Notes under the pieces: model-generated
The model's database searches: none
What the model was told of the DNA's origin: nothing
The model's input: only the letters and a program-made list of their open reading frames with translations
Part shown: positions 31,063 through 57,814 of the stretch, one piece after another
Position numbering within the stretch: the stretch's first letter is position 1
Layout: the number at the start of each line of letters is the position of its first letter
Made by a program: the position numbers and the translations under genes
Assembly (NCBI GenBank): GCA_963816185.1
Contig: CAWFJJ010000001.1
Location: 161,224 to 225,223, forward strand
Source: Thermoanaerobaculia bacterium
GTDB lineage: Bacteria > Acidobacteriota > Thermoanaerobaculia > UBA5066
DNA length: 64,000 nt
Direction of reading: 5' to 3'

Positions 31063-31830
31063 TTGAAGAACAAGATCTTCCTCCTTTCGGAGCTCCTCCG
31101 AAGAGACCTGGCGGCCCGATACGGGGGCAGTTTCGCGGGTCCCTTATGGGCGGTCCTGAACCCGGCTGTCTTCTGCGCGCTCAACGCCTTCGTGTTCGCC
31201 TTTGTCATCAAACTTCCGGTTCCAGCCGGTTTCAAAGGCAGTTATGTGGAGTTCCTCCTGGCAGGCCTCCTCCCCTGGCTCGGCATCCAGGAGGCGGTGA
31301 TGAGGGCCACGGTGTCGGTGAGCGACCAGGCGCATCTCGTCAAGAAGCTGCGTTTCCCGGTTCATCTCCTGACGGCGTCCGCGCTCGGAGCCGCGCTCGT
31401 CGTCCAGGCGATCGGAATGAGCCTCCTGACCGTTTTCCTCCTCGTGACCGGACGCGGCTCCGTGAATTTCGGCCTCCTCGTCGCCGCCTTCGCTTTCGAG
31501 TGCCTCCTTCTCGCCGGGCCGGCCCTCGTTCTCTCGTCGCTGAACGTCTTCTTCCGCGATCTCGCTCAGCTTCTCCCGCCGTTTCTCATGATCGCGTTCT
31601 ACCTCTCGCCGATCATCTATCCCGAATCGATGGTCCCGCGCTTCGCCGCGCCCTTCCTCGCGTTCAACCCGCTGCGCGATCTCCTCGCACTTTTTCGCGC
31701 TGCGCTGTTCGGGGCGCCGCCGCCATCTCTCGCGCACCTCGCCGGGTGGTCGGCCGTGCTCGTCGTGGTAGGCTTGCTGGGAGTCCGGTTCTTTCGGCGG
31801 TGCCGCCCGTCGTTCGCGGACCTTCTCTAG
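31063..31830 (+). CDS. wzm: ABC-2 type polysaccharide export permease (Wzm/KpsM-like)
   Basis: 255 aa with a TTG start and six TM segments. N-terminal LLRRDLAARYGGSFAGPLWA is typical of Wzm/TagG. Confidence 0.75.
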   Translation: MKNKIFLLSELLRRDLAARYGGSFAGPLWAVLNPAVFCALNAFVFAFVIKLPVPAGFKGSYVEFLLAGLLPWLGIQEAVMRATVSVSDQAHLVKKLRFPVHLLTASALGAALVVQAIGMSLLTVFLLVTGRGSVNFGLLVAAFAFECLLLAGPALVLSSLNVFFRDLAQLLPPFLMIAFYLSPIIYPESMVPRFAAPFLAFNPLRDLLALFRAALFGAPPPSLAHLAGWSAVLVVVGLLGVRFFRRCRPSFADLL

Positions 31831-31893
31831 AATGACTCTTCATCGCCCGAAGGCCGAAGGCCCGAGGGTTCCGTGCGCTGCTAGGAGTTTTCC

Positions 31894-33600
31894 GTGAAAG
31901 TGTCCCTCTCCGCCCTCTTGGCGGCTGTACTGGCTGCGGCTATCGGCTGCTCGTCCTCTGGGCCTTCGGCTCCCGCCGCGAAAACCGCGGCCGAAGAGAA
32001 GGCCGCAGAGGACGCGAAGCGAAGTGAACGCGCGAAGGCGCTCCTCGGCCTGCAGCCTCCGGCGCCGGTTCCGGGAGAAGAGACCGGCGAAGTTCCAACG
32101 ACGACGGTCGTGGACCCTGACACCGGAAAGAAGCTCCTCAGGATCCCAAAGCAGATCCTCTATTACGAGAAAGGGGGACGCCTCTTCAACGCCGTCGTGG
32201 TCGGGCCGGGACTCCCGATCGTCCGCGAGGACGACAAGGCGTACTTCATCCTCGCGCCTCCGGAGCGGCCGAAGCCAGCTCCGGGGAAAGCCGGCGAGCC
32301 GGAACCCGAAGACCTCAAGCCGATCATCGAGCTCCCGGCGAGCGAAGCCGCCGTCGTGACGCCGAAGGTCTCGAAGGGCGCGTTTCGTTTCGAGGAGATC
32401 TCCGATGGTTTGCCGGTCGGGGGCATGTGGCGTGAGAACTTCGACGTGGGAGACGTCCTTGGGCAGGGCCGTCCCCAGATCGTCGTGCCGCCGGCCCGGC
32501 TCACGGGCAACTTCATTCGCGTGTACCGGCTCGACAAGGGCGAGGACGACAAGTGGCGCTGGCACCTGGCCAACGTCACGTTCGAAAACGCCGAGAATAT
32601 TCAAGCGGCTTACGGTGCCGCCACCCTCGCGGACATGGACGGCGACGGCAAGCTCGACATCGTCTTCGGAGGACACGGCTCTGGACCCGCGATCGCGTTC
32701 AACAAGGGTGGAGGCGCGTTCAAGGTCGAGACCCTGGGTCTGCCCCGGCAGATGTCGACGCGTGCGATCGCCGTCGGAGACCTCAACGGCGACGGCCGGC
32801 AGGACCTTCTCGCCATCTCCGACGATCCCGAGTGGCTGCTCGCCGCCGGCAAGCCGCACGCCGACAAGGGCAGCTCCTACGTGCGGGGGTACGACGTCCG
32901 GGCCTTCCTGAACGAAGGCACGCGTTTCCGCGAAATTCACAAGGGCCTCGAAGGAGCCTGTTTCGGGTACTCGATTGCGCTCGTCGTGCCGAAGGACGCG
33001 AAGGACGGGCTGCCGTTCTATTCGTCCGGCTGCCGGTACACCTCGAGCGCCACGCATCTCTTCGAGTTCGATCCCAAGCTTGAGGAATTCCGCTACGCGG
33101 GCGTCGGCGTGGTGGAGCTCTTCTCCCAGCACATGGGATCGGCCGCCGGCACGTACCACGGCCGGCCCGCGGCCTTCGCCTCCTGGTTCAAGCGTTCGCC
33201 GTTCGGCGCCACGCCCAAGATCGACGGGCAGGGGGTCACGGTCTATTACCGGGACGTGGACGGGAAGATGGCGAGCAAGCGCGTTGTGAAGACGCTCCAG
33301 CCCGAGGCCCCCGGGTCATCCGGCATCGCCGTCGGGGACCTGAACGGAGACGGCCTCGACGACGTCGTGTGGTGCGACGAAACGTCGCAGCGCATACGGG
33401 TCTTCTTCCAGACGTCCGAGGGCGAATTCGAAGAGCTGCCGACCGAACGGGAGCCGACCTTCATCAACCATCCGACCTCGCTCCGGATCGCGGACTTCGA
33501 CGGGGACGGGCACAAGGACGTCGCCCTCATGTACCAGTACCTCACAGGGGACGAAACCCGGGCGGGTGGATTACGCGTCTTTCGAGGCCTCCCGAAGTGA
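31894..33600 (+). CDS. FG-GAP/VCBS-repeat beta-propeller lipoprotein
   Basis: GTG start with an AGGAG RBS. Lipobox AAAIGC. Repeated DxDGDGxxD motifs (DMDGDGKLD, VGDLNGDGRQD, VGDLNGDGLDD, ADFDGDGHKD). Confidence 0.7.
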   Translation: MKVSLSALLAAVLAAAIGCSSSGPSAPAAKTAAEEKAAEDAKRSERAKALLGLQPPAPVPGEETGEVPTTTVVDPDTGKKLLRIPKQILYYEKGGRLFNAVVVGPGLPIVREDDKAYFILAPPERPKPAPGKAGEPEPEDLKPIIELPASEAAVVTPKVSKGAFRFEEISDGLPVGGMWRENFDVGDVLGQGRPQIVVPPARLTGNFIRVYRLDKGEDDKWRWHLANVTFENAENIQAAYGAATLADMDGDGKLDIVFGGHGSGPAIAFNKGGGAFKVETLGLPRQMSTRAIAVGDLNGDGRQDLLAISDDPEWLLAAGKPHADKGSSYVRGYDVRAFLNEGTRFREIHKGLEGACFGYSIALVVPKDAKDGLPFYSSGCRYTSSATHLFEFDPKLEEFRYAGVGVVELFSQHMGSAAGTYHGRPAAFASWFKRSPFGATPKIDGQGVTVYYRDVDGKMASKRVVKTLQPEAPGSSGIAVGDLNGDGLDDVVWCDETSQRIRVFFQTSEGEFEELPTEREPTFINHPTSLRIADFDGDGHKDVALMYQYLTGDETRAGGLRVFRGLPK

Positions 33601-33666
33601 GGTTTCCGGCCGGAACGACACTCTCCTAGCGGATATGCGCGTCCACCATATTTTTCGGGAAACCCC

Positions 33667-33695
33667 TTGACATCGAGGAATTTTATTCCTATTGT
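33667..33695 (+). promoter_or_regulatory. Sigma70-type promoter candidate (TTGACA-17 nt-TATTGT)
   Basis: The -35 hexamer is at 33667-33672 and the -10 hexamer at 33690-33695. It lies in a low-GC intergenic region ~200 nt upstream of the 33894 gene. Confidence 0.4.
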
Positions 33696-33893
33696 TCGAC
33701 CAATGTTCAGGAGACTGGTGTCAGCCAGACTAGATATGCGCCCGCAGGGCGCTGCAAACCGGATTTCAAATTGAATTTCGGGAGGTGATTCAATATCGCG
33801 CGCGGCAGGAGCCGGATTAACCTTTCGAAAAACTCTCTTGAAAGAACTCACTCGGCACTAACGGATCCACTCGAATCATCGGTAGGAGTAAAA

Positions 33894-35640: not shown

Positions 35641-35662
35641 AGTCTCTTTTTCCTGATTCCCT

Positions 35663-35699
35663 GGGCGGGCGGCTTCGGCCGCCCGCCCTTTTCTTTTCT
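35663..35699 (+). terminator. Rho-independent terminator
   Basis: Perfect 11-bp GC stem gggcgggcggc-ttcg-gccgcccgccc followed by ttttcttttct. Confidence 0.65.
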
Positions 35700-35853
35700 G
35701 AAAGATGCCCCACATCCGGGACACTTCGATCCGGCCCCTCGGCCACGCGTAAATGACGAAACCGGCTGGACACGGCCCACGCTCGGAGATAAACTTACGC
35801 TCGGATCACCTTCGCCCTGGAAGGGTTATTCGCGCCCCTAATCGAGGACCCAG

Positions 35854-41074: not shown

Positions 41075-42271
41075 ATGCCCTCTCTCCCTTATTCGTTCTC
41101 GAACCTGAGCAAGGTCTACCGCCTCTACTCGGCTCCGCGCGACCGCCTTCTCGAAGCGCTGACCGGCCGCCCGCGACACGCCGAGGTCCACGCGCTCTCG
41201 GACGTTTCCGGGGGCATCGACCGGGGCGCGGTCCTCGGCGTCATCGGCGAGAACGGCTCGGGCAAGAGCACGCTCTTCAAGATCCTTGCGGGAACCACGG
41301 CCGCGACGTCGGGCAGCGTGAGCCTGCCGGGGCGGGTGGCGTCGATCCTCGAGCTGGGGGGGGCCTTCCATCCGGAGGACACGGGCCGGCGCAACGTGAT
41401 CCTGCAGGCCGCCCTCGCGGGGCTCTCGCGCGAGGAGGTCTCCGCGGCTTTGCCGGAGATCGAGGCGTTCGCCGAGCTCGGCGATTTTTTCAACCGGCCC
41501 GTCAAGACGTACTCCTCGGGCATGCAGATGCGGCTCGCGTTCTCGGTCGCGACCGCGGTTCTGCCCGACGTGATCCTGCTCGACGAAGCGCTCGCCGTGG
41601 GCGACGGCCGTTTCCAGAAGAAGTGCGTCGACCGCATTTTCGAGCTCAAGGCCGCGGGCAAGACGATCTTCTTCTGCAGCCACGCCATGTACTACGTGTC
41701 GACGCTGTGCGACCGCGCGCTCTGGCTGAACGCGGGCCGCGTGGAGGCCGCGGGCGACGCGCAGAGCGTCGTTCTGGAGTATGAGAAGTTCCTCGCGCGG
41801 AAGGACGCCGCCGTGCCCCATCAACCCCGCCCGCCCGCGGATTCGCACGGACACATCACGGGCCTTTCCTTCGTCGGCGCCGACGGGATCGACACGGAAG
41901 AATTCCGTCCGAACGAGCCGTGGGTCGCCGAGGTCTCGTTCGAGGGCGACACACCCGAACGGCTCATGCACGTTCATCTGGGCGTCGCGACGCTCGATGG
42001 TGTCGTGTGCTTTACGGCCGACTCTCGTCTCGATGGCGCGGGACCCTTCGGAGGACGAACCCGGCACCGGATCCGCATCGCCCTCGAGAAATTGCCTCTC
42101 GGGAAAGGAGAGTTCGTCGCGAACGTCTTCCTTGGCGACGAGAAAGCTCTCGCGCTCTACGACTCGCGGAGCCGCACGTTCCGCGTGGAATCCGAGACTT
42201 GGCGGAACGGTCTGATGAGCCCGCCGCTCACGTGGAAGACGATTCCCGCGCGGGGCGACGGCCCCGGATGA
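41075..42271 (+). CDS. wzt: Polysaccharide ABC transporter ATP-binding protein Wzt with a C-terminal extension (putative carbohydrate-binding domain)
   Basis: 398 aa. Walker A GENGSGKST, signature YSSGMQMRL, Walker B ILLDEA. About 150 aa lie beyond the NBD (GHITGLSFVGADG ... ). This resembles the Wzt C-terminal O-antigen-binding domain. Confidence 0.85.
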   Translation: MPSLPYSFSNLSKVYRLYSAPRDRLLEALTGRPRHAEVHALSDVSGGIDRGAVLGVIGENGSGKSTLFKILAGTTAATSGSVSLPGRVASILELGGAFHPEDTGRRNVILQAALAGLSREEVSAALPEIEAFAELGDFFNRPVKTYSSGMQMRLAFSVATAVLPDVILLDEALAVGDGRFQKKCVDRIFELKAAGKTIFFCSHAMYYVSTLCDRALWLNAGRVEAAGDAQSVVLEYEKFLARKDAAVPHQPRPPADSHGHITGLSFVGADGIDTEEFRPNEPWVAEVSFEGDTPERLMHVHLGVATLDGVVCFTADSRLDGAGPFGGRTRHRIRIALEKLPLGKGEFVANVFLGDEKALALYDSRSRTFRVESETWRNGLMSPPLTWKTIPARGDGPG

Positions 42272-43275
42272 GGATCGCGTACATCCTCGAGTCCCTCGAG
42301 CTGTCAGGCGGCGTCAAAGTCGTCGTCGCGCACGCCGAAGGACTCGCAGCCCGGGGACACGACGTCTCGATCGTGACGAGGGACGCACGGCATGACTGGC
42401 TCGAGATCCGGGTGCCGATCGTGGCCGTTCAGCATTTCGGCCCCGAGACGCTGCCCGAAGCCGATGTCCACGTCGCGACATGGTTCCCGACGGTCCTCCC
42501 CGTCGTCAACGCGCACCGCGCCGCGCAGGTCTTTCATTTCTGCCAGGGCTACGAGGCGCCCCATCCGCACACCGTTCACCGGCTTGCGGAGATCGAAGAG
42601 GCCTATCGGCAGGGGATTCCGAAGCTGCTCGTCTCAGCGCACCTTCTCCCGCTTCTCGAAGGGCGTTATCCGGGGCCCTTCCACGTCCTGCCGCAGGCGA
42701 TTTCGGCGCGGGACTTCGCGCCGCCCGATCCCGAGCGCACCCGGCCGCGGCGCCCCTCGGTCCTCGGCGTCGTCGGCCCGTTCGAGGCTCCTCTGAAGGG
42801 GATCGGCTTCGCGCTCCGTGCGGCCCTCAGGCTCCGCGAGGGAGGCCGCGACGTGCACCTTCACCGTGCGAGCGCCCTGCCGCTCACCGAGGCCGAGCGG
42901 GACCTGTGCGCGCCCGACGCGTATTCCCACGCGCTTCCCGCGGCGGCGATGCCGGCGTGGTACCACGGCCTCGACGTCCTCCTGTATCCCTCTTTCGACG
43001 CCGAGGGCTTCGGGCTTCCGCCGCTCGAGGCGATGGCCTCGGGGGTCCCGGCCGTCATCTCCGACATCCCGTCGCTCGTCGTCCTGCCGCCTGACGCGGT
43101 CTCCCGCGTCTCGGCCGGCGATTTCGCGGCGATGTCGCGGGAGGCAGCCGGCCTCCTCGACGACCCGGCGTTGTGGGCCGAGCGGCGCGCCCGGGGTCTC
43201 GAGGTCGCCCGGACGTTCACGATCGACCGCGTCCTCGACCGGCTCGAGGAAATCTTCTGTCAGAAGACGTCGTGA
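42268..43275 (+). CDS. Glycosyltransferase family 4 (GT-B)
   Basis: 335 aa. ATGA overlap with wzt. The C-terminal motif EGFGLPPLEAMASGVPAV is typical of GT4. Confidence 0.8.
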   Translation: MRIAYILESLELSGGVKVVVAHAEGLAARGHDVSIVTRDARHDWLEIRVPIVAVQHFGPETLPEADVHVATWFPTVLPVVNAHRAAQVFHFCQGYEAPHPHTVHRLAEIEEAYRQGIPKLLVSAHLLPLLEGRYPGPFHVLPQAISARDFAPPDPERTRPRRPSVLGVVGPFEAPLKGIGFALRAALRLREGGRDVHLHRASALPLTEAERDLCAPDAYSHALPAAAMPAWYHGLDVLLYPSFDAEGFGLPPLEAMASGVPAVISDIPSLVVLPPDAVSRVSAGDFAAMSREAAGLLDDPALWAERRARGLEVARTFTIDRVLDRLEEIFCQKTS

Positions 43276-44239: not shown

Positions 44240-45301
44240 ATGCCCCTGATTTCCGCCGTCCTCGTGAGCTATCGGTCCGCGGGCCTGGCCGTGCGCGCGA
44301 TCGAGAGCCTGCGCAGTGACGCGGCGAAAGCGAACCTCGCGCTCGAGACGATCGCCGTCGTGAACTCGGGCGACCCGGAGGAAGCGCGCGCTCTCGCCTC
44401 GGCCGCCGATCGCGTCGTCGATCCCGGCCGCAACCTCGGCTTCGCGGGCGGCCTCAACGCCGGGATCTCTGTCGCGCGCGGGGAGATCCTCGTCCTCGCG
44501 AATCCCGACGTCGTCGTCGGCGCGGGGACGCTCGAGGCGCTCTCGGCCGAGGTGCTCGGCTCCTTCGTCGCGGCGGGTCCGGCGCTCTTCCTCGACGAAG
44601 CCGAGACGCTCCACCTGCCGCCCGCCGAGGAGCCGCACCCGTTCGAGCTCGCGCGCCGCCGGCTCCGAGGAGCCGACTGTCAGGCAGCGTTCCGGCGGCG
44701 GTACCGGCGCGCACGGGGCGCGGCCGAAGCGGCGGAGAGAAACGAGACTCGCCTCACGACGGCCCTTTCGGGGGCGTTCATCGCGGTGTCTCGGCGGACG
44801 CTCGAGCGCGTCGGTGCTTTCGATGAGGGCTACGCACTCTACTTCGAGGAGAACGACTGGCAGCGGCGCCTGAGGAAGACCGGAGGCCGGCTGTCGCGCG
44901 TCGGCGCCGCGCGCGTCGTCCATCGGTACAACCAGAGCGCCCGGCTCGAGCCGCGCGCCGCAGCCTGGTTCGCGGCGTCCGAACGCCGCTATTTCGAGAC
45001 GTATTTCGGCGTGCGGGGCTCACGCGCGCTCGACGCTCTCGCGGCCACGCCGTCGCGGGCTGCTGACGCTCCCGTTCCGGCGCCTCTCGCGAACGGCATC
45101 CTTCTCTTCGACGCGCCGTCCGCCGCCATCGCGCTTTCGCCGGTATCGGACTTCGGTGCGTTCGCGCTCGATCCGTGCGCCTCGGGCGGCTCCTGGCGTC
45201 CGCCGGAAAACGTCAGGCGAGGCTTCGGCGGCGCCACGTGGTTCGTGCGGGCCGTGGACCTCGAGACGGGCCGCATCCTGTCCGAAGGTACTCTCTCCTG
45301 A
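44240..45301 (+). CDS. Glycosyltransferase family 2
   Basis: N-terminal VLVSYRS ... IAVVNSGD. GT-A DxD-type region NPDVVV. It also has GAFIAVSRRTLERVGAFDE. Confidence 0.8.
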   Translation: MPLISAVLVSYRSAGLAVRAIESLRSDAAKANLALETIAVVNSGDPEEARALASAADRVVDPGRNLGFAGGLNAGISVARGEILVLANPDVVVGAGTLEALSAEVLGSFVAAGPALFLDEAETLHLPPAEEPHPFELARRRLRGADCQAAFRRRYRRARGAAEAAERNETRLTTALSGAFIAVSRRTLERVGAFDEGYALYFEENDWQRRLRKTGGRLSRVGAARVVHRYNQSARLEPRAAAWFAASERRYFETYFGVRGSRALDALAATPSRAADAPVPAPLANGILLFDAPSAAIALSPVSDFGAFALDPCASGGSWRPPENVRRGFGGATWFVRAVDLETGRILSEGTLS

Positions 45302-45374: not shown

Positions 45375-47387
45375 CTAGCGCGCCCTTCCTAGGCGCGTGC
45401 GAAGCACGCGGCGCGCTAGCTGGGCGGCCTTCCAGACCCTCGAGCCGGCGATCGCGCTCAGCGTCTTTCCGAGCTCGTGTCGCTCGGCCACGAGGCTCGT
45501 GCGCGTGCGGTGCTCGAAGGCGAGGAGCTCGAGCGCGGCACGCTCGCCCGGCGACACCTCCCGCGCAGGAGGGAGCCGGTCCATGAACGCGCGGAAACGC
45601 GTGGCCGTGAGCTTCCATGTGAAGCGCCGAGCCGTCTCGACGCCCTTTGCCGCGAGTCGCTCTCGGAGCGCCGGATCGTCGAGCAGCCGCCGGATGCCCG
45701 CCTCGAGCGCCTTTGAATCCCGCGGGGGCACGACGAGCGCGTTGACTCCGTCGATCGCGTATTCGGCGGCGCCGCCGGAGTCTGTCAGGACGCACGCGGC
45801 CCCGCTCGCCATGCCCTCGAGCCCGATGAGGCCGAAGCCCTGGAAGAGAGAGGGATCGATCACGATGTGTACCGTCGAGAGGAGGTTCGGCACCGCGTCC
45901 CGCTGTATCGTGCCGAGATGCGTGTGCCGGAAGCGGGGCGCGTCGGCCGGCACCGTCGCGTGCCCGAAGAGGACGATGTCGACGCCGGGCCGGTTCGCGA
46001 TCTCGGCGAGCGCGGGAAGAAGGAACTTCATCCCACGCCGCTCGTCCTGCCGCAACATCGCGGTGATGCGGATCGGGGGGCCCGCCTGCCTGTCCCCCCG
46101 CGGGTAGTACACGTCGGGATCCGCGCTGATCGGGATGGGAGTCGCCACGTGTCCGTCGCGCGTCTCGATCTCGCGGGCGAGCCAGGTCGAGATCGTGACG
46201 ATGCGGGGTATGAGGTCGTACGTTCGCGCGACGTACTCGGGCGAGTCGAAGCCGAACCAGCCTTCGTAATCCTGGACGAAGTAGGCCGTCTGGATTCCGC
46301 GGGATGCCGCGGCGGCAGCCACGTGGGCTGCGGTCTGGTATCCCGTGGCGACGAGCAGCTTCGCGGGCGGGCAGCGTTCGAGGAATTCCGCCGCCGAGAG
46401 CCGAAGCGGCCGGAAGAAGAGCTCCATCTCGATTTCCGGCGGCACGGTCTCGAAGACGACGACGCCGGCGCGCACGCCCTGGAGCACGAGCGCGTTCGCG
46501 AGCTCGAGGACGTCCGCCACGCCCCCGTAGATCCCGAGGAGCGGCAGGACGAAGAGGACGTCGTAAGGAGCCGCCGGCTCGGAATCGGGCAGCGTCCACT
46601 CGAACGTCACGGCGTCGCGCACGGCGCCGAGCTCGTTCCTGCCGTTGAACTCGGCGAGCTCCTTCTCGTGCCGTTCACGCCAGCGGGACATCAGGATCCT
46701 GAGGTTCGCAGCGATCCGCACATCGGAATCGGGAAAGCTCGCGCCTTGGCGGTGGTGAATCCACGTGTCGTCGGCGACGACGCAGCGCCAGCCCGCCGCG
46801 CGCGCCCGGTAATGGAGGTCGGTCTCCTCGCAGTAGCCGCGTCCGAAGACCTCGTCGAAAACCCCGAGCGTGCGGATGACCTCGCGCCGCACGAGAAGGC
46901 AGTGGCCGACGATCGTCGTCGCATCGGGGTACCGCGCGGGGCTGGTCCGCGCGACGCGGCGGGCGAACGAGAAGACGTTCTCGCCGGGAGGGAGCTTCAC
47001 CGAGAGGTTCACGGCGCTGCCCGAGAGGGGGCAGCAGAGGCCGATCGCGGGATCCCCTTCGCAACGCGCCACCATCCGCTCGAGAGCGCCCTCCGTGAGA
47101 AGGGTGTCGGAATTCAGGAGGCAGACCCACGGCGCGTCGGAGAACAGGAGCCCGCGGTTCGCGGTCTTCACGAAGCCGAGATTCACCTCGTTTTCGAGGA
47201 GGACGATCCCTTCCTGCGCCCTCAGGAACTGCGTGGTCCGGTCGTTGCTCCCGTCGTTGACGACGACGACGCGCGCCCAGGAAGGGGCGAAGCGGCGCAC
47301 GCTCTCGAGGCAGTCGCGTGTCGAGCGGAGCGCGTTGTAGACCGGGATGACGAGGTCGCAGCGCACTCCCGCGGTTGGAACCGTCAT
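45375..47387 (-). CDS. Bifunctional glycosyltransferase (N-terminal GT2 + C-terminal GT4) with a C-terminal helical tail
   Basis: 670 aa from MTVPTAGVRCDLVIPVYN. The GT2 part has VVVNDGSND, CLLNSD and GHCLLVRREV. The GT4 part has GFGLIGLEGMASGAACVLTD. ATGA overlap with the next gene. Confidence 0.8.
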   Translation of the reverse strand: MTVPTAGVRCDLVIPVYNALRSTRDCLESVRRFAPSWARVVVVNDGSNDRTTQFLRAQEGIVLLENEVNLGFVKTANRGLLFSDAPWVCLLNSDTLLTEGALERMVARCEGDPAIGLCCPLSGSAVNLSVKLPPGENVFSFARRVARTSPARYPDATTIVGHCLLVRREVIRTLGVFDEVFGRGYCEETDLHYRARAAGWRCVVADDTWIHHRQGASFPDSDVRIAANLRILMSRWRERHEKELAEFNGRNELGAVRDAVTFEWTLPDSEPAAPYDVLFVLPLLGIYGGVADVLELANALVLQGVRAGVVVFETVPPEIEMELFFRPLRLSAAEFLERCPPAKLLVATGYQTAAHVAAAAASRGIQTAYFVQDYEGWFGFDSPEYVARTYDLIPRIVTISTWLAREIETRDGHVATPIPISADPDVYYPRGDRQAGPPIRITAMLRQDERRGMKFLLPALAEIANRPGVDIVLFGHATVPADAPRFRHTHLGTIQRDAVPNLLSTVHIVIDPSLFQGFGLIGLEGMASGAACVLTDSGGAAEYAIDGVNALVVPPRDSKALEAGIRRLLDDPALRERLAAKGVETARRFTWKLTATRFRAFMDRLPPAREVSPGERAALELLAFEHRTRTSLVAERHELGKTLSAIAGSRVWKAAQLARRVLRTRLGRAR

Positions 47388-48409
47388 CGCTTCAGGAGCT
47401 CCTTGAGCTTCCACCACGGTGTGAAGAGACGCCACGCGAGAGAGCTGTTCATGGCATCGACGGTCGCGCGAAGTCGGACGTTCTCGACGGCGAGCGCCTG
47501 CTCACGCGTCGCGGACTCTTCGCTCTGGCGCGCGGTGTGATCCCGTGTCGCACGCAGCTCGGCTTCGCGGGCGGCGGCCGCGGCGAGGGCCGCCCGGTCC
47601 GCCTCACTCCGCGCGCGGGCCTCTCCGGCTTCGCTCTCGAGGCTGTCGATGACGGCCATCTCGGTCGAAACCGACCGCCGAGCCGCATGTTTCTCGAAGA
47701 GGCGGCGGCGAGCCGTCTGCGCTTCCGCCGAGTGCCACGGAAAGGCGGCCGTGATGTTCGACGCGTCGTTACGGACCCGGTAGACGGCGGTGACGGAAGG
47801 CAGATGATGGAACCGCGTCCGCGCGGAGAGGCGGATGAGGAAATCCCAGTCCTCGAACTCGTCGAAGGTCTCGTCGAAGCCGCCGATCTCTTCCGCGAGT
47901 GCGCGGCGATGCGCGAGGCCGATGAGGGGAATGTCATTCTTGTAGAGGAGACGCGCGGCATCGAACGGCCTCCCGTAGACCGTGATCTCGCGCCCGCCGC
48001 GGTAACGACCGTCGTCGCCGAGCACCTGCTCGATCTGGCGGACGGACGTGTAGGCGGCGCGGTACTCGTCGCTGCCGTCGAGAAAACGCACCAGCGTGTC
48101 GAGATGAGCGGGCAGGTAGAGGTCGTCGTCGTCGAGATACGCCACGTACGTGCCGCGCGCGGCCGCGAGGCCGGCGTTCAGGGACCGCGTTCTCCCGCCC
48201 GGTGGAGGCGGAACGAGCACCTGGATGGCACGGCCCGGCGCAGGGTCGAGAAGTCCGGCCGGAAGGAGGCCGCCGTCGTTCACGAGAACGGTCTCGAAGT
48301 CGGAGAACGTCTGGGCGCGAAGGCTGTCGAGGGCCTCGGCGAGGAGGCTCGGCCGGTCCTTCGTCCGGAGCAGCACGGAAACGCGCGGCGCGCTTGCCTG
48401 ATCGACCAC
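47384..48409 (-). CDS. Glycosyltransferase family 2 with a C-terminal coiled-coil and a Trp-rich amphipathic tail
   Basis: GTG start. GT2 motifs VSVLLRTKDRP ... VLVNDGG ... YLDDDD. The last ~100 aa are heptad/Ala-Arg-Glu rich and end in SSLAWRLFTPWWKLKELLKR. Confidence 0.8.
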   Translation of the reverse strand: MVDQASAPRVSVLLRTKDRPSLLAEALDSLRAQTFSDFETVLVNDGGLLPAGLLDPAPGRAIQVLVPPPPGGRTRSLNAGLAAARGTYVAYLDDDDLYLPAHLDTLVRFLDGSDEYRAAYTSVRQIEQVLGDDGRYRGGREITVYGRPFDAARLLYKNDIPLIGLAHRRALAEEIGGFDETFDEFEDWDFLIRLSARTRFHHLPSVTAVYRVRNDASNITAAFPWHSAEAQTARRRLFEKHAARRSVSTEMAVIDSLESEAGEARARSEADRAALAAAAAREAELRATRDHTARQSEESATREQALAVENVRLRATVDAMNSSLAWRLFTPWWKLKELLKR

Positions 48410-48441
48410 TGAACTGATTGTAGGCGGTAAGCTTCCCCGAG

Positions 48442-49224
48442 ATGCCGTCCCCTGATTTTCCGGACGAGCGCGAACTCGTGCCTTACGAGGCGTCGACGTT
48501 CTTCGCGAGTCGCGTCGTCGTATTCGCCCCGCATCCGGACGACGAGGTCCTCGGCTGCGGCGGGGCGCTCGCGGACCTCCTCGACCGCGGGGCCCGCCTC
48601 GACGTCGTCCTCGTGACGGATGGCGCGGCGGGGGCGCGCGACGCCGAAGAGCGTGGGCGCATCGCGAAAACGCGGATGGAGGAATCGCGCCGGGCTCTCG
48701 ACGCGCTCGGCGGCGGGGCGTTGCATGCTGGCGGCTTTCCCGATCGCGGCCTCGCGGACCGGCTCGACGACGTCGAGGCGCTGCTCGAGAGATGGCTGCT
48801 CGAAGCGTCGCCCGACCTCGTTTTCGCGCCGTCGCCGGTCGAAACGCATCCCGATCATCGCGCGGTCGCTGCCTCTCTCCTCCGGCTGGCGGCGCGTCCC
48901 GCCGGCGATGCAGCGGCCCGGGCGCTGGAGGGGACGATCGTGGCGTTCTTCGAGCTCTCCCAGCCCTTCCGTCCCAACTTTCTCTTCGACGCCACTCGCG
49001 TCGCCGACCGCAAGGAGCGGGCGATGGCCGCGTTCTTTTCCCAGGCTGCCGAGCGAGACTACGCGGGGTTCGCAAGGGGTCTCAACGCCTACCGCCGGAT
49101 GACGCTTTCCGCGGACGTCGCCTCCGTCGAGGCGTACTCCGTGGCAGCCGGTTCCCGGCTTCGTCGCGACCCGGAAGGGGTCGTCCGGGCGCTCCTTCCC
49201 GTCGCGGCGGCAGGGAAGAGATAA
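48442..49224 (+). CDS. PIG-L/LmbE-family N-acetylglucosaminyl deacetylase
   Basis: 260 aa with the HPDDE motif (VVFAPHPDDEVLGCGG) and a later HPDH motif. Confidence 0.85.
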   Translation: MPSPDFPDERELVPYEASTFFASRVVVFAPHPDDEVLGCGGALADLLDRGARLDVVLVTDGAAGARDAEERGRIAKTRMEESRRALDALGGGALHAGGFPDRGLADRLDDVEALLERWLLEASPDLVFAPSPVETHPDHRAVAASLLRLAARPAGDAAARALEGTIVAFFELSQPFRPNFLFDATRVADRKERAMAAFFSQAAERDYAGFARGLNAYRRMTLSADVASVEAYSVAAGSRLRRDPEGVVRALLPVAAAGKR

Positions 49225-50429: not shown

Positions 50430-50457
50430 GACATCCCCGCGAATGCGGCGAAGAAGA

Positions 50458-50486
50458 GGGCCCGGGAAACCGGGCCCTTTTTGTTG
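50458..50486 (+). terminator. Rho-independent terminator
   Basis: gggcccgg-gaaa-ccgggccc followed by tttttgttg, 29 nt after the stop of the PEGA gene. Confidence 0.7.
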
Positions 50487-50708: not shown

Positions 50709-51695
50709 ATGAAGCAATTCCAATCCGCGTTTACCCGTGGACTCATCTTTGCCGCTTTCCTGACCGTAGGGGTCGCGGAACCCGGCCGCGCGGAAGAAGC
50801 CACGCATGAAGCCGGCAAAGTGATTGACGTGAGCGCCTTCCGGGCCGCTCCCGACGCGGGGGTGACGGTCACGGGCGCTTCGACGAGCGAAAGCTCTGAC
50901 TCTCGGTCTCCGGAGATCGCGGCCGGCCGTGCCGCCCTCGCACAACCTGGCTGCACGATTTGTCTCGGGGGCACGGGGTCGATCCAGTGGAACGGAGCGA
51001 GCGGGTCTTTCCATGTCGACAGCATCACCAATAACCGCAGCTCCGGCACGAGCGGATCACTCGACCTGAGGGTGGCCCTTTCGAGCTCCTTTCCCGTGTA
51101 CGGCCAGACGCTGACCTATTACTCGTTCTCGGACACACTCTCGCTGAATCCGCTCGCCGCGGGGTACATGTATTCAAACGTCAACTCGGGGGCCGTCAAC
51201 TACCACGGAAGCTCCATTCCGGCGGGTCTGTATTGGCAGCTCCTCTACTTGCGGGAGTATCAGGGCGGGGGCGTCTACCAATACGCCGACTGGATTGTGA
51301 TGCCCAACAAGATCTCGTGCAATGGCTCCGGATGCTCCGTCGTTTCATCGTGCACCGAGGACGCCTACACGATGTGTCTCGTGAACGGGCGTTACCGGGT
51401 CACGAGCCACTGGAAGAACCAGTACGCCGGCGGGGCGACGGCGAATCTCTCCAAGGCGAAGCTGACGGACACGACGGGTGCTTTCTGGATCGCGGACGCG
51501 AACACCTACGAGTACCTGGTCAGGTTCAACACGGCGACGAATAACGGCAGAATCTGGGTCGCGATCCCCACGTTTACCGACGTCGAGTTCTGGGTGGATG
51601 TGACGGACACCGTCGGCGGGCAGAGCAAGGAGTACCACAGCCTTCCGGGGAACCAGACGCTGATCTACGACCCGTTCTTCTTCATCTATCCGTAG
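50709..51695 (+). CDS. Secreted hypothetical protein (Cys-containing, beta-rich)
   Basis: Signal peptide MKQFQSAFTRGLIFAAFLTVGVAEPGRA. No recognisable domain. Confidence 0.45.
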   Translation: MKQFQSAFTRGLIFAAFLTVGVAEPGRAEEATHEAGKVIDVSAFRAAPDAGVTVTGASTSESSDSRSPEIAAGRAALAQPGCTICLGGTGSIQWNGASGSFHVDSITNNRSSGTSGSLDLRVALSSSFPVYGQTLTYYSFSDTLSLNPLAAGYMYSNVNSGAVNYHGSSIPAGLYWQLLYLREYQGGGVYQYADWIVMPNKISCNGSGCSVVSSCTEDAYTMCLVNGRYRVTSHWKNQYAGGATANLSKAKLTDTTGAFWIADANTYEYLVRFNTATNNGRIWVAIPTFTDVEFWVDVTDTVGGQSKEYHSLPGNQTLIYDPFFFIYP

Positions 51696-51728
51696 ACGCG
51701 GGGCGGGGTCCGATATCCTGACGGGACC

Positions 51729-53261: not shown

Positions 53262-53323
53262 CGGTTAGTCGCCGAGCGAGAGTCGGAGGCGACGCATGGG
53301 GTATCGTGAGATTCAGAGACCCA

Positions 53324-54034
53324 ATGAAGTACGACGCCGTCATGGCCGCCCTTCGCGCGTTCGTCGTCGAGGGCGGCAAGCCCGAGAGCATCTTCCTTCT
53401 CACCGAAGGAGGAATGCGCGAGATCTACGATTGCATCGTCAAGAATCGGCTGCGCGCCTGCCTCGAGCTTGGGAGCGGATTCGGCGCGACGAGCTGTGTG
53501 ATGGGAGCGGCTGTGGCGGAGACGGGGGGCACCGTCACCACCATCGATCTTGCCCTCCACTGGCCCGCAAACGCCTCCACGTTGAAGGCGCACGTTGGAC
53601 TCGGTAACGAGCTCGAGGTCGTCGCGGATCCGCTCGGTTACAACTGGTACCTCGCCGACCTGATCGCAAAGCGGACCGTCAGCGGGAAGTGCGAGCCGCT
53701 GTTCGACTTCTGTTTCCTGGACGGCGCGCACGAGTGGGAGCCGGACGCTCTCGCAGTGATCCTCGCCGCGAAGCTCCTGAAGCCGGGCGGCTGGCTTGTC
53801 CTCGACGACCTCGACTTTGCTCTCCGGAGCATGCCGACGTGGAAGGAGTCGCACGGCCACCTGTCCGACCGCGAGCTCGACTCGTACCAACTCAAGATGG
53901 TCTGGGACCTCGTGATCAGACAACATCCCGACCTGACAGCCTTCGAAGTCACTGGGAACGGACGTATCGGCTGGGCGAGGAAGGTGGGCGTTTCGGCGGG
54001 CAAGGGATTGTTTTCCCGGCTCCTGGGCGGATGA
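53324..54034 (+). CDS. Class I SAM-dependent methyltransferase (O-methyltransferase-like, Methyltransf_24/TylF-type)
   Basis: SAM motif LELGSGFGATS. Acidic motif FCFLDGAHEWE. A possible GTG start at 53306. Confidence 0.7.
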   Translation: MKYDAVMAALRAFVVEGGKPESIFLLTEGGMREIYDCIVKNRLRACLELGSGFGATSCVMGAAVAETGGTVTTIDLALHWPANASTLKAHVGLGNELEVVADPLGYNWYLADLIAKRTVSGKCEPLFDFCFLDGAHEWEPDALAVILAAKLLKPGGWLVLDDLDFALRSMPTWKESHGHLSDRELDSYQLKMVWDLVIRQHPDLTAFEVTGNGRIGWARKVGVSAGKGLFSRLLGG

Positions 54035-54080
54035 CCGCCTCCTCCTCGCCTCGGACTCGCTGACCGTACAATTCCGTCGT

Positions 54081-56106
54081 TTGAGCCAGGATTCGTTCGA
54101 GGAGCTCCGCGAAGAGCTGGAGAAGACCCGCGCCGAGCTTTCGGAGGCGCGGGCGCGCATCGCGGGGATGGAGATGAGCTTCTTCTGGAAGGTCCGCAAT
54201 GCGTGGTGGAGGCTCAAAGGCGGGCTCGCCGGCAGCGCGCCGTCCGGCGAGCACACCGCGCGGCCCGCTGCGGATCCAGCGCTCGTCCACGTTCCCGGCT
54301 TCGCGCCCGTTCGCATCCGGCGCGCCGCATTCGATTGCTCGTCGGATGCCGTCGACGTCGTCGTTCTCGTTCACGACGATCTGCCCGTTCTCGAGGAGTG
54401 CCTCGGGGCCCTGCTCCGGCACGCGCGTCCCCCTTACAAGCTCTTCCTCGCCGATCCGGGCGTGTCGCCCGCGCCGCGGACCTGGCTGGAGGGTTTCGCG
54501 CGCGATCAGGGAGCCGTCCTCGTGCAGGGCGCAGACGCCTTCCAGGAAGCGTGTGGCGCGGGCGCGTCACGCTTCGCTCTCCTGCTCGACGGGCGCGCGC
54601 GCGTCGCGGCGGATTTCCTCGACCGGCTGATCGCCTGTCTCGCCTCCGATCCGAGAGACGGCGGGTGTCATTCCCCTCGCCGCCGACATTCCGGGCGCCG
54701 GCCCGGCCTTCGAGCGCGTCGAGCGCGCGCTGGCCGACGGGGATAGGGCTCCCGCGACTCTCCTCGCCGCCGAGTCGGCTCGGCTCTTTCCGGCATCCGG
54801 AGACGGTGGCGGCTGCGCGCTCCTCGTGAGGCGACCGGCATTGCGCTCCGGCGGATCGGAGCGCTCGCCAGGTGAGGTCCTCGCCCGGATGCGGGCCGAT
54901 AAGAAGCGGATTCTCCTTGCGGACGACACGTGGGTGGCCGGCGCCGCCGCCGCGGCCCCGGAGGCGCCGGACCGCGTGACCGCCGGCATCGCGGCCCGTT
55001 TCGCGATTCTGCCGGAGCGGGTCGGCCTTCGGGAGCGCGCGCGACGGCGGTGGGAAGGGAAGCGCGTCCTGTACGTCCTGCCGGTGCTCGAGCGCGGAGG
55101 CGGGTCGAACGTCGTCCTGGCGGAAGCGCGGGCGATGACGCGGATGGGCGTCGAAGCGCGCGTCTTCAACCTCGCGGGTCACCGATCCGTCTTCGAGAAG
55201 AGCTATCCGGCGCCGGGCGTTCCGATCGTCTACGGACGCGAGTCCGATCTCGTCGAGATCGCGCAGGGCTTCGACGCCGTGATCGGGACGGCTCACTACT
55301 CGGTGCCTTGGATGGTGCCGCTCGCGAGGCTTTCGCGGCCTCCGGTTCTCGGCTACTGCATCCAGGATTACGAGCCGCTCTTCTACGCCGAAGGCTCGGA
55401 CGATTGGAAGCGTGCGTTCGCCTCGTACTCTCTCGTGCCGGGCATGCGACGTTTCTCGAAGTCCGCGTGGAATGCCGACGAGGTCGTCGCCCGGACGGGC
55501 CTCGACTGCGCGCTCGTGAGCGCGAGCTTCGACGCGGACATCTTCCGCCCCCGGCTGCCGGAGCCTGCCGCAAGCCCGGTGCGGATCGCCGCGATGGTGC
55601 GTCCCTCGACGCCGCGGAGGCAGCCAGGCCTCACCGTCGACGTGATGCGGGCCCTCGCGCAGAAGCTCGGCGACCGGGTCGAGGTCGTCCTCTTCGGGTC
55701 CGAGCGGTCGGATCCCGCCCTGCGTCCACTTCGCCTCGACTTTCCGCACCGCTTCCTCGGCGTCCTCGACGACCGGCAGCTCTCGGCTCTCCTGTCGCAG
55801 GTGCACGTCTTCGCGGATCTCTCGACGTATCAGGCGCTCGGCGTCGCATCGCTCGAGGCCATGGCATCGGGCGCCGTGGTCGTCGTCCCGAAGACGGGCG
55901 GAGCGAACACATTCGCCACGCACGAGATCAACGCCCTCGCCGTCGACACGTCGTCCCGGGACGCTTGCGTCGCCTGCCTCGAGCGGCTCGCCACGGACGA
56001 GGCGCTCCTCCGGCGCCTCGCCGCTCAGGCGATCGCGGACGCCGGTCTCCATACGCCCGACCGCGCGGCGGCGGGCATCCTCGAGGTCCTGTTTGCACAA
56101 GCGTAG
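54081..56106 (+). CDS. Bifunctional glycosyltransferase (N-terminal coiled-coil + GT2 + GT4). It has an apparent frameshift near 54640.
   Basis: ORF 54081..54746 has a coiled coil (EELREELEKTRAELSEARARIAGME) and a GT2 start (VDVVVLVHDD). The GT2 domain continues in the frame of ORF 54826..56106 (GVIPLAADIPG ... GGCALLVRR), then the GT4 part (ASLEAMASGAVVVVP). The junction ggcgggtgtc fits one extra G. Confidence 0.65.
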
Positions 56107-57155
56107 GGTCCACGTCCTCCACGGCTTCTATGGCGCGGAGATTCCCTACAGCTGCACGTACATCCGCCTCCTGCGCCCGCTCTCGCATCCGGCCCTCGCT
56201 GACGAGATCGACCTGACGCACGGCACGGCGGAAGCGGTGCCCGACTGCGACCTCCTCGTCGTCGAGCGGCACGTTCTCTGGCCGTACGAGAGGCAGCTGG
56301 ACGGATTCGTCCGCGTGCTTTCCCGTTGCCGGCAGAAGGGCATCCCCGTCGTCTACGAGCTCGACGACAACCTGCTCGACCTCCACCGCGACGAGCCGTG
56401 GGAGACCGTACCCGGGAGACTCGCTCCGCGCCGTCGTCGCGTTTCTCGCGCGCCAGGCCGACGGCATGATCGTCTCGACGCCGGCGCTCGCGGAGCGCGT
56501 GGCGGATCTCAGAAGCGGGGTTCTCGTCGTGCCGAGTGCGCTCGACGAACGGCTCTTCGGCTCCGCGCCGGATCCCTTCCTGTCGCATTCATCCACGGTG
56601 ACGATCGGCTACATGGGCACGCTGACGCACGAGGCGGACCTCCGCATGGTGCTCGCGCCGCTCCGGGCGCTCCTCGCGCGCCACGCCGGAAGGGTGCGGC
56701 TGGAGCTCGTGGGCGGAGTCGCGGGGCGGAGGACGGCGTCACTTTTCGATGGCCTGCCGTTCCGGATGCGGGAGCCGGGGAACGAGGACCCTTACCCGAG
56801 GTTCGTCCCGTGGATGCGGCAGCATCTGCGATGGGACGTCGCGATCGCGCCGCTCGAGGACAACCCTTTCACGCGGTGCAAGTCCGACCTCAAGTACCTC
56901 GACTACGCGGCGCTCGGGATTCCGGCCGTCTTCAGCGACGTGCGCCCCTACCGGGATACGGTGCGCCATCGCGAGACGGGTCTCCTCGCTGCGAACGAGC
57001 CCAAGGCGTGGGCGGACGCGCTCGAGGAAATCGTGAGAGACGGCGCCCTTCGCGCACGGCTCGCGGAGGCCGCGAAGGCCGAGGTACACGGCAGCCGGAT
57101 GCTGAGGACGAACGCCGTGCTTTGGCGCGAGGTCCTGCTTTCGGTCGGTCGTTAG
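56093..57155 (+). CDS. Glycosyltransferase (GT-B, family 1/4-like). It has an apparent frameshift near 56420.
   Basis: N-terminal part in ORF 56093..57895 (TTG start). It continues in ORF 56466..57155 (GDSLRAVVAFLARQADGMIVSTPALAERV ... IGYMGTL). The junction gtacccgggagac fits one extra G. Confidence 0.6.
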
Positions 57156-57814
57156 CGCGATTCGCTGAGCCACTCCATCGCGGCCCCGACGTCCTCGCCC
57201 GCAAAGCGGCCCTTCGACACGTCGATTCGCTCGAGGATCCAGCGCTTCCCGTTGCGCTCGAGCGCGATCGAGCGAAGCGGGCGCGACTCGGGGGGCGGCT
57301 TGTCGCGGCGCACCTCCAGGCGGACTCCCCACTCCCGGACGACGCCCTTGTAGAGCCTGAGCGCGTGCTCGACGGGGATGCGCCTTCTGTGAAGGTCGAT
57401 CGCGACGTCCGGGTGAATCACGTATGTGATCTCGCGGAGCAGCCAGCGCGCGTGCAGGATGTTCTCCCAGAAGTCGACGAACCACACGCAGATGTGAAGG
57501 TAGTGGTCCTCGTTGAAGAACATCTTGTGGTCGATGATGAACGCCGAGTTCTCCCACGCGTAAGGAGTCCAGAACTCGAGGGTCGCGCCGTCCTCCGCGA
57601 CGCGCGTGATCTCGGCGAAGAGGGCGGTCGGGTCCTTGACGTGCTCGAGAAAGTGCGAGGAGTGCACGTACGCGACGCTCCGGTCGGGAAACGGGAGCGG
57701 GGCGTTCAGGAGGTCGACGACCTGGTCGACGCCGGGGCCGGGCAGGACGTCGAGCCCGATGGTGCCGTCCTTCTTCTTGGCTCCGCAGCCCAGGTCGATT
57801 CTCAGTCCCGCCAT
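57152..57814 (-). CDS. Class I SAM-dependent methyltransferase
   Basis: 220 aa from MAGLRIDLGCGAKKKDGTIGLDVLPGPGVDQVVDL, with a GxGxG-type SAM motif. Its stop is convergent with and overlaps the GT stop. Confidence 0.65.
   Translation of the reverse strand: MAGLRIDLGCGAKKKDGTIGLDVLPGPGVDQVVDLLNAPLPFPDRSVAYVHSSHFLEHVKDPTALFAEITRVAEDGATLEFWTPYAWENSAFIIDHKMFFNEDHYLHICVWFVDFWENILHARWLLREITYVIHPDVAIDLHRRRIPVEHALRLYKGVVREWGVRLEVRRDKPPPESRPLRSIALERNGKRWILERIDVSKGRFAGEDVGAAMEWLSESR

Follow-up and report, generated by a model that had tools for sequence, protein, structure and literature searches.

Exported proteins encoded between wzm and wzt in an ABC-transporter-dependent glycan locus of a Thermoanaerobaculia bacterium

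The Thermoanaerobaculia are common in soils and peat and are largely uncultured, and we know of no description of their cell envelope. The locus studied here lies in a 64,000-nt stretch of DNA from a Thermoanaerobaculia bacterium (contig CAWFJJ010000001.1, positions 161,224 to 225,223; "the window" below means this whole stretch), in which the genes of an ATP-binding cassette (ABC) exporter, wzm and wzt, are set apart by genes of large exported proteins. It raises the question of how these proteins are related to the polymer. An earlier note, made from the sequence only, had suggested that the glycan may be attached to them. The analysis showed that this is an ABC-transporter-dependent glycan locus of the cell envelope, chromosomal and vertically inherited. 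It joins lineage-specific exported orphan proteins with a polymer-export pathway, and offers a starting point for the surface composition of this group. The layout would link the exported proteins to the polymer; covalent attachment is possible, and anchoring on the glycan without a covalent bond would agree with the gene linkage at least equally well.

The split exporter pair

Genes were called by third-position G+C (the G+C content of the window was about 68%), and domains were assigned by Pfam profile matches against the window open reading frames (ORFs). The closest relatives of the window proteins were found in Acidobacteriota genomes, chiefly Thermoanaerobaculia; contigs or parts of contigs of relatives are given by L numbers and individual homologues by P numbers. 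The wzm and wzt genes, placed about 9 kb apart in the earlier note (31063–31830 and 41075–42271), were upheld by Pfam, with a gap of 9,244 nt. For comparison, 56 further Wzt loci in which a Wzm could be detected were measured: the gap was at most 414 nt in 53 and exceeded 1 kb in only 3, the widest being 6.4 kb.

The ABC2_membrane match of Wzm spanned positions 5–211 of the 211-position profile. The best PDB matches of Wzt were Aquifex Wzt and TarH/TagH (E 1e-59 to 1e-53). The Wzt_C profile scored 24.3 bits on the window Wzt, below the cutoff of 30.4; in the orthologues, Wzt_C matches stood unmarked in L084, L085, L087, L114, and L115 and marked as weak in L081. The locus was assigned to a glycan pathway because of Wzm, a Wzt whose C-terminus is putatively of the carbohydrate-binding type, cytoplasmic glycosyltransferases (GTs) of several domains, coiled coils, and two S-adenosylmethionine (SAM) methyltransferases. 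The three large exported proteins said to lie between wzm and wzt are present, but the Cys-rich and the giant genes are not intact ORFs here.

Conservation in relatives

The gene order helix-turn-helix (HTH) regulator, wzm, FG-GAP, Cys-rich, giant, wzt, GT4, GNAT, GT2, GT2-GT4, GT2, PIG-L, PEGA recurred in at least 10 contigs (L081, L084, L093, L094, L096, L097, L101, L104, L114, and L115), in which the Cys-rich and giant proteins were about 40–80% identical. Synteny had been proposed in the earlier note as a check, and the embedded exported genes recurred in at least 10 relatives, which argues against a recent insertion. Judged from gene order, the exported proteins of the wzm-wzt interval, together with the PEGA and orphan proteins downstream, were shown to be long-standing members of the locus. 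The far end of the locus was displayed by L089 and L097, parts of one 139-kb contig, with PEGA, an extra PKD protein, the orphan, GT-C, GT4, methyltransferase, a 585-aa protein, and holB.

The pairing of giant and wzt was also found at greater distance. In L087, from a distant member of the Thermoanaerobaculia, a 1612-aa PKD giant (26% identical) was paired with wzt; the order after this giant was radical SAM/SPASM, wzt, a gene of unknown function, 2-oxoglutarate oxygenase, GT4, GT2, GNAT, and a PIG-L-GT2 fusion. In L003 and L085, a homologue of the giant C-terminus lay directly before wzt. Among 16 close metagenomic homologues of the giant C-terminus, 13 had wzt directly 3' and three were unlinked paralogues. 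The core of wzt, GT4, GNAT, GT2, PIG-L, and GT2 was common to L001 and L002 (Acidobacteriota, Holophagales) and L087, and the genes most widely conserved with wzt were those of the GT4 (42268–43275), the 320-aa GNAT (43260–44222), and PIG-L (48442–49224). Radical SAM genes adjoined wzt in the distant relatives (L087 5052–6185; L001 8872–9993 and 12359–13279; L002 1917–2882), two of them with SPASM; unlike these relatives, the window carries no radical SAM gene.

The giant protein

The giant began with a signal peptide and an unassigned N-terminal region of about 750 aa; Ig/PKD domains and a poly-Gly linker followed, and the C-terminal region of about 500 aa was conserved. It contained 21.6% Ser+Thr, 20 Cys, and a Gly11 linker; the Ser+Thr content of the giants of the window and the relatives was 19–22%. 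A high Ser and Thr content is not unusual in surface proteins rich in beta structure. Pfam and NCBIfam scans of the N-terminal 800 aa and the C-terminal 502 aa were empty, and PEP-CTERM or other sorting signals were not seen when the C-terminus (...ATFLKAQPAP) was checked by eye. In the structural model, the C-terminal region was predicted to form four beta-sandwiches; carbohydrate-binding modules were among the structures most similar to them.

Over the best-scoring aligned segments, the giants of close relatives were 40–76% identical and the enzymes mostly 70–92%, with GNAT and GT2 down to 51–69% in several loci. A portion of the giant N-terminal region had no match in L097, and the L115 giant had no PKD match. 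Such a pattern is that of a conserved module fused to a variable, presumably exposed part. At other genomic sites in L082, L083, L086, L098, L102, and L103, paralogues were found that comprise just the C-terminal module; such dispersal would suit reusable anchoring modules. The giant C-terminus homologues P0013 and P0019 also sat elsewhere on their contigs, P0013 beside a pair of extracytoplasmic-function (ECF) sigma factor and anti-sigma factor.

Some of these paralogues, outside any glycan locus, consisted of a signal peptide and the C-terminal module (L082 10001–11641, L083, and L086 640–2451), and the module paralogue of L082/L083 directly adjoined an ECF sigma factor/RskA anti-sigma pair. 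In the closer giant orthologues (L093, L096, L104, L114, and L115) and in the window (35854–35980), the signal peptide was followed by a conserved Gln-Cys-Thr (...A/G-QCT...) at the predicted mature N-terminus, a pattern from which the distant L087 giant departs. Gln-Cys-Thr may point to a disulfide or to a modification of the N-terminus that has been conserved.

In the giants of the relatives, 14–19 N-x-S/T sequons were observed, with 14–17.5 expected after shuffling. The window giant had 25 (15.6 expected) and was the only giant above expectation.

The other exported proteins

The N-terminus of the FG-GAP protein was VKVSLSALLAAVLAAAIGC, a signal peptide with Cys (...AAIGC). This protein was 56–80% identical in the relatives, and its propeller gave weak matches to the rhamnogalacturonan lyase propeller (RGL11_C, E 0.006). 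The Cys-rich protein was 57–91% identical (within alignment A3). Its family comprised at least 293 proteins, all hypothetical, and was narrow: in a set of 1.84 billion representatives it formed only 76 clusters at 50% identity. No Pfam or NCBIfam match was obtained for the Cys-rich protein, and comparison of the family profile with the PDB was also empty.

The terminator after the Cys-rich gene was kept in seven relatives (L081, L093, L094, L096, L097, L101, and L104), and in L101 its stem carried a compensatory change (GGGTGG/CCACCC). Between this terminator and the giant gene (35663–35860), the boxes CACTTC and CTGGACA were conserved; terminator and boxes together suggest a conserved regulatory leader. 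Since a promoter-like site precedes it and a strong, conserved terminator follows, the Cys-rich gene is probably transcribed separately and strongly, and its product is probably an abundant structural component. The giant gene likewise appears to have its own promoter-like site and terminator.

In the PEGA protein, two PEGA domains were preceded by a low-complexity Gly/His/Trp stretch (GGHGGGGGSHSG... WWGWGWGWGGWPYDWWWGG). The earlier note had pointed out that PEGA occurs in S-layer proteins; the domain is indeed present in this 368-aa protein, but it is not specific to S-layers. Neither the 328-aa nor the 417-aa orphan had a Pfam or NCBIfam match. The domain of the 328-aa orphan (window 50946–51692) was 47% identical to the C-terminus of an 805-aa sedolisin-propeptide/PKD protein (L089 6591–9008), and because the same domain ends that protein, the orphan was regarded as a reusable C-terminal module. 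BLASTP revealed no similarity of the exported proteins to one another. Among them there was no significant match to lyase, hydrolase, OPX, or PCP families and no Pfam match to S-layer or anchoring domains (SLH, CWB2, RsaA-like).

Frameshifts

Within the glycan locus, the Cys-rich gene had one frameshift (at about 34480) and the giant gene three (at about 36090, 36215, and 38180); two glycosyltransferase genes were shifted as well, at about 54660 and 56405. The earlier note had evidently joined frames over such points and made no mention of it. The homologues P0021, P0032, P0002, and P0008 aligned uninterrupted over the frameshift junctions. The giant was a single ORF of 1687–1699 aa in short-read relatives, and Cys-rich homologues were intact at 517–603 aa. 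The sister long-read contigs L081 and L084 were broken too, but elsewhere in the sequence. A gene of an FHA-GAF-PP2C (SpoIIE-type) phosphatase outside the glycan locus (13968–15630, + strand) also had one frameshift, at about 14905. Because this unrelated gene is shifted, indel errors were considered to be spread over the window and not specific to the locus. Because, in addition, homologues span the junctions and the short-read ORFs are intact, sequence comparison identified the frameshifts as assembly indel errors, and pseudogenisation of the locus was rejected on the grounds of the shifted unrelated gene and the uninterrupted homologues. The overlapping open frames at 6241–10008 and 22907–24612 were found to be separate genes, and a frameshift reading of them was rejected.

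Polytopic membrane proteins

The 510-aa polytopic protein scored 26.1 bits with Pfam PMT_2, exactly the gathering cutoff of 26.1, and PF13231 was precomputed for nearly all its homologues. Sequence search revealed no relative in the PDB. The family was confined to Thermoanaerobaculia and other Acidobacteriota, with annotation as GT39 or ArnT-like. In a Foldseek search, the AlphaFold model (34 homologues, predicted local distance difference test score 91.6) matched ArnT first (E 2e-6), followed by STT3/AglB, AftA, and ALG9; the identity to ArnT was 14–16%. By its predicted structure, the protein is a GT-C_A enzyme with a multi-helix membrane core and a periplasmic domain. The earlier note had called it a candidate oligosaccharyltransferase-like protein; in the AlphaFold/Foldseek check the fold was GT-C_A with ArnT nearest, and a PglL/WsaB-type identity was rejected. 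An ordinary WaaL O-antigen ligase, which the same note had named as the outcome that would speak against its proposal, was rejected too, as the comparison with WaaL (7tpg) was at noise level (E 1.7, TM 0.18).

Residues D44, S45, D47, W48, and R65-P66-P67 were invariant in 34 homologues of 43–88% identity, and the model places D44, S45, D47, and W48 in or around a short helix after the first transmembrane helix, in the first extracytoplasmic loop. An N-glycosylation (STT3/PglB) reading was rejected, as the GT-C has no WWD motif and the giants show no consistent sequon excess. Regarding an ArnC/GtrB-type polyprenyl-phosphate-sugar synthase, no GT2 of the locus has C-terminal hydrophobic segments. 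A GT-C homologue with 45% identity was found in L088, outside any such locus.

A second polytopic gene sits between the last methyltransferase and holB, and is intact in L089 (585 aa, 13888–15645, – strand). In the L089 protein, multiple hydrophobic segments and a soluble C-terminal domain of about 200 aa were recognised; no Pfam or PDB match was obtained for it, and hhalign showed no relation to the GT-C family. In the window, tblastn with the L089 protein matched three frames, and an in-frame stop was also present, so that this copy may reflect clustered errors or may truly be a pseudogene. The 585-aa protein is a candidate ligase, polymerase, or transferase.

Glycan enzymes

The gene list of the earlier note was essentially right: its GT4, GT2, coiled-coil GT2, PIG-L, two SAM methyltransferases, PEGA, and GT-C-like protein were all borne out by Pfam, but it missed the GNAT, the orphan at 50709–51695, the GT4 at 56093–57155, and the second polytopic gene. 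The strands of GT2-GT4, coiled-coil GT2, GNAT, and Methyltransf_11 were corrected to minus. Of its two GT2-GT4 enzymes, the one at 45375–47435 stands, but the protein at 54081–56106 shows a GT4 domain and no detectable GT2 domain, and a second fusion was not confirmed. The latter protein had a 438-aa coiled-coil and GT4 homologue in L089. The best-scoring aligned segment of GT2-GT4 was 88–92% identical in most close relatives and 65–72% in L085 and L097, and one GT4 gave a weak WsaF_C-like signal. PDB relatives of PIG-L were TT1542, diacetylchitobiose deacetylase, and BshB.

The trio of GT4, GNAT, and PIG-L presumably recalls MshA/MshB/MshD of mycothiol synthesis; here it may instead remodel an N-acetylglucosamine primer. 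Possible parts of a chain-length or terminator system are the two SAM methyltransferases and the two glycosyltransferase proteins with coiled coils. Together with multidomain glycosyltransferases, such components would agree with a control of chain length through modification of the chain end, as in WbdD; a WbdD-like kinase was not found at the locus. For an initiating phosphoglycosyl transferase and an acceptor ligase, no Glycos_transf_4, Bac_transf, or Wzy_C match was obtained among the scanned window ORFs, and these genes may sit elsewhere in the genome. Pfam also detected no Wza/KpsD-type, PCP, or WaaL component in the locus.

Comparison with known systems

Limited literature searches found no description of this locus. 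Among the most similar known systems is the slg cluster of Geobacillus stearothermophilus NRS 2004/3a, with sgsE, wzm/wzt, WsaC-F, WsaB, and a methyl cap (PMC2943079). Both have a Wzm/Wzt exporter, multidomain cytoplasmic glycosyltransferases, potentially capping methyltransferases, and a surface-protein gene beside glycan genes (PMC2943079). The slg host is Gram-positive and low-GC, unlike the host of the present locus; its wzm and wzt are adjacent or one ORF apart, whereas they are split here by 9.2 kb; and slg includes WsaP initiation and rml genes, none of which occurs here. The known en-bloc O-oligosaccharyltransferases PglL, PilO, and WsaB carry Wzy_C (PMC2943079), whereas the membrane candidates here are the ArnT-like GT-C and the unclassified polytopic protein. 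The exported proteins have no detectable similarity to known S-layer families.

The ABC-dependent O-antigen pathway (Escherichia coli O8/O9a WbdA/WbdD/Wzm/Wzt; Aquifex aeolicus) shares the Wzt match, multidomain glycosyltransferases, and putatively a Wzt_C-type domain. The locus differs from it by the split wzm/wzt, by the absence of a WbdD-like kinase, waaL, and wecA from the window, and by the embedded PIG-L/GNAT and many exported orphans. Caulobacter S-layer genes lie near O-antigen genes. In Gram-negative organisms, S-layers are held in place via the lipopolysaccharide (LPS) O-antigen, as for RsaA of Caulobacter crescentus (PMC6978808). Like RsaA, which depends on an O-polysaccharide without a covalent bond, the giant is a large secreted protein of a diderm, and by analogy the logic of a conserved anchor and a variable exposed part would match; similarity to RsaA was seen neither in sequence nor in fold, and no type I secretion genes were in the locus.

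Actinobacterial PMT and the TfpW arabinosylation of Pseudomonas aeruginosa pilin are cases in which GT-C enzymes glycosylate proteins; the likeness would lie in a PMT_2-family or GT-C enzyme, secreted Ser/Thr-rich proteins, and polyprenyl-phosphate sugars. In contrast to ArnC/ArnT and GmlB/GmlC, no ArnC/GtrB-type synthase or GtrA-like flippase was near the GT-C of the locus. Addition of side branches to an ABC-exported O-antigen by GT-C enzymes is established for Klebsiella GmlB/GmlC (PMC12797948).

Relation of the exported proteins to the polymer

The reading slightly preferred here, and held tentatively, is that the exported proteins are surface or periplasmic partners of the polymer that bind it non-covalently, by analogy with S-layer proteins on O-antigen or secondary cell-wall polymers. 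It was favoured because of the pattern of conserved module and variable N-terminus, the dispersed module paralogues, and the weak resemblance to carbohydrate-binding modules. Going by family membership, the cytoplasmic GT4, GT2, and GT2-GT4 enzymes would build the polymer on a polyprenyl carrier, PIG-L and GNAT would remodel an N-acetyl-hexosamine, the methyltransferases and coiled-coil proteins would cap the chain or fix its length, Wzm/Wzt would export the finished chain, and the ArnT-like GT-C would add or modify sugars in the periplasm. The Cys-rich protein would be a separately transcribed and probably abundant structural component. The giant would expose its fast-evolving N-terminal part, and its C-terminal beta-sandwich tandem would hold it on the glycan, or aid glycan assembly, without a covalent bond; this tandem would then be a new surface-anchoring module. 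Several points weigh against non-covalent partnership. The initiating phosphoglycosyl transferase, WaaL, and an outer-membrane export component were not found in the window. L001 carries the enzyme core without an adjacent giant. The closer relatives were syntenic well beyond the locus (DnaJ, NTP-transferase, and proline dehydrogenase), and because the whole neighbourhood is syntenic, much of the conserved order may reflect relatedness and not selected linkage. Ser/Thr-rich giants beside a PMT_2-family GT-C would fit covalent glycosylation equally well, and the link proposed between the exported proteins and the polymer is at present deduced from the gene neighbourhood.

Covalent O-linkage of the glycan, or of sugars from polyprenyl-phosphate donors, to the giant, the Cys-rich and/or the FG-GAP protein by the GT-C or the second polytopic protein would make a counterpart, in a diderm, to the S-layer glycosylation of Gram-positive bacteria, and was considered rather unlikely. 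The Ser+Thr content of the giants (19–22%), the conserved position of target-like genes within a glycan locus, and a GT-C that is not WaaL-like agree with it, as does the 585-aa polytopic protein, which is unclassified, has a C-terminal domain of periplasmic type, is conserved at the edge of the locus, and might be a transferase of a new kind; the slg cluster places an S-layer gene beside wzm/wzt, glycosyltransferases, and a methyl cap (PMC2943079). A Wzy_C O-oligosaccharyltransferase of the slg type is absent here, from the scanned window ORFs as well as from the precomputed Pfam lists of the relatives, so that a new transferase would be needed; the GT-C matched ArnT best, with no polyprenyl-phosphate-sugar synthase in the locus and with the 45%-identical homologue of L088 outside such a locus, and in L001 the enzyme core occurs without a giant. 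An N-glycosylation version is opposed by the missing WWD motif and the lack of consistent sequon enrichment. A more specific form, in which a capped polysaccharide exported by the split Wzm/Wzt is moved onto the giant and Cys-rich proteins by a new-type transferase (GT-C or the 585-aa protein) to give a glycoprotein surface layer, was judged decidedly unlikely. A Wzm/Wzt-exported polymer on proteins would, if true, extend the Gram-positive S-layer mechanism to diderms and probably bring a new type of oligosaccharyltransferase. Also improbable on balance is an ordinary locus for LPS O-polysaccharide or exopolysaccharide, with the exported-protein genes as independent neighbours kept vertically and a GT-C that decorates the polysaccharide or lipid A. 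Every enzyme type is standard for ABC-dependent O-antigen loci, the GT-C is nearest ArnT, and there is an established case of a GT-C adding side chains to an O-antigen exported by an ABC transporter (PMC12797948); the neighbourhood-wide synteny of close relatives makes order weak evidence of function, the Cys-rich and giant genes seem to own promoter-like sites and terminators, and L001 and L002 have the core without giants. However, a split wzm-wzt is rare (3 of 56 above 1 kb, none at 9 kb) and yet stably kept here; giant and wzt are still paired in L087, where the giant is 26% identical and the other neighbours differ, and also in L003 and L085; five or six exported orphans are interleaved with the enzymes, L089 adding a PKD protein at the same place; and there is no waaL in the window. 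Periplasmic glycan-processing proteins are commonly encoded in exopolysaccharide operons, and the exported proteins could be periplasmic or outer-membrane machinery (a scaffold, a part of the export apparatus, or a lyase or hydrolase that processes the polymer) in place of the missing OPX/PCP or ligase. The lack of Wza/KpsD-type, PCP, and WaaL components in the locus, the RGL11_C match of the FG-GAP propeller, and the high conservation of the Cys-rich protein speak for this, but it was held to be highly improbable: no significant lyase, hydrolase, OPX, or PCP match was found, the fast divergence and domain turnover of the giant are unlike core machinery, and a structural product is what a strongly terminated, monocistronic gene suggests.

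Features of the locus

Table 1. Genes and signals of the glycan locus (window coordinates)
Feature	Position (strand)	Characteristics
Secreted orphan protein, 417 aa	28540..29793 (-)	One N-terminal hydrophobic segment; syntenic in L081, L084, L093, L104
TPR-repeat protein	29658..30563 (-)	Pfam TPR families; adjoins HTH gene in relatives too
XRE-type HTH regulator	30556..30984 (-)	HTH_3 E 1e-14; divergent from wzm
wzm, ABC-2 permease	31063..31830 (+)	ABC2_membrane E 3e-13; about six hydrophobic segments
FG-GAP beta-propeller protein, probable lipoprotein	31894..33600 (+)	FG-GAP_3 E 4e-29; FG-GAP E 2e-15
Sigma-70-like promoter match	33667..33695 (+)	5' of Cys-rich gene; TTGACA-17-TATTGT, 10/12 positions; consensus match only
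Cys-rich secreted orphan protein, ~581 aa	33894..35640 (+)	Signal peptide; 12 Cys; one frameshift
Intrinsic terminator	35663..35688 (+)	3' of Cys-rich gene; 11 G-C pairs then T-run
Giant secreted protein, ~1697 aa	35854..40966 (+)	Three frameshifts
wzt, ABC ATPase with putative C-terminal carbohydrate-binding-type domain	41075..42271 (+)	ABC_tran E 3e-18
GT4 glycosyltransferase	42268..43275 (+)	Glyco_trans_1_4 E 1.5e-13; start overlaps wzt stop (ATGA), codon checked
GNAT acetyltransferase, 320 aa	43260..44222 (-)	Acetyltransf_9 E 1.5e-8
GT2 glycosyltransferase	44240..45301 (+)	Glycos_transf_2 E 1.3e-8; without C-terminal membrane helices (hydropathy)
Bifunctional GT2-GT4, 686 aa	45375..47435 (-)	Glycos_transf_2 E 7e-21 (residues 28-190); Glycos_transf_1 E 3e-18 (503-598)
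GT2 with C-terminal coiled coil	47384..48412 (-)	Glycos_transf_2 E 5e-15; coiled-coil tail seen in sequence
PIG-L/LmbE-family de-N-acetylase	48442..49224 (+)	PIG-L E 1.8e-27
Secreted PEGA protein, 368 aa	49326..50429 (+)	Signal peptide; start codon checked; PEGA E 9e-15, two domains; Gly/His/Trp-rich region
Secreted orphan protein, 328 aa	50709..51695 (+)	Signal peptide
GT-C (GT-C_A) polytopic glycosyltransferase (predicted), ArnT/PMT_2-like, 510 aa	51729..53261 (+)	
SAM methyltransferase (Methyltransf_24)	53324..54034 (+)	E 2.5e-11
N-terminal coiled coil + unassigned domain + GT4 protein, ~674 aa	54081..56106 (+)	Glycos_transf_1 E 1e-12 in C-terminal half; frameshift ~54660
GT4 glycosyltransferase, ~353 aa	56093..57155 (+)	Glyco_trans_1_4 E 9e-11 on joined sequence; frameshift ~56405
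SAM methyltransferase (Methyltransf_11)	57152..57814 (-)	E 6e-7
Second polytopic membrane-protein gene remnant	57825..~59488 (-)	Unclassified family; at least 5 frame breaks; beyond the end of the locus given in the earlier note

A search of 30000–60000 with Rfam gave nothing at the gathering threshold. The 417-aa orphan lay upstream with regulator genes in the relatives also. The HTH regulator had a promoter-like site at 31027–31000 (– strand), and the regulator kept its position in L081, L093, L096, L104, L114, and L115. Downstream of the second polytopic gene were holB and then a PDZ-SpoIIE phosphatase gene. A second ABC-2 permease/ATPase pair (4456–6216, – strand) adjoined heme O/A synthase genes (CtaA, UbiA-type) and was apparently unrelated to the glycan locus.

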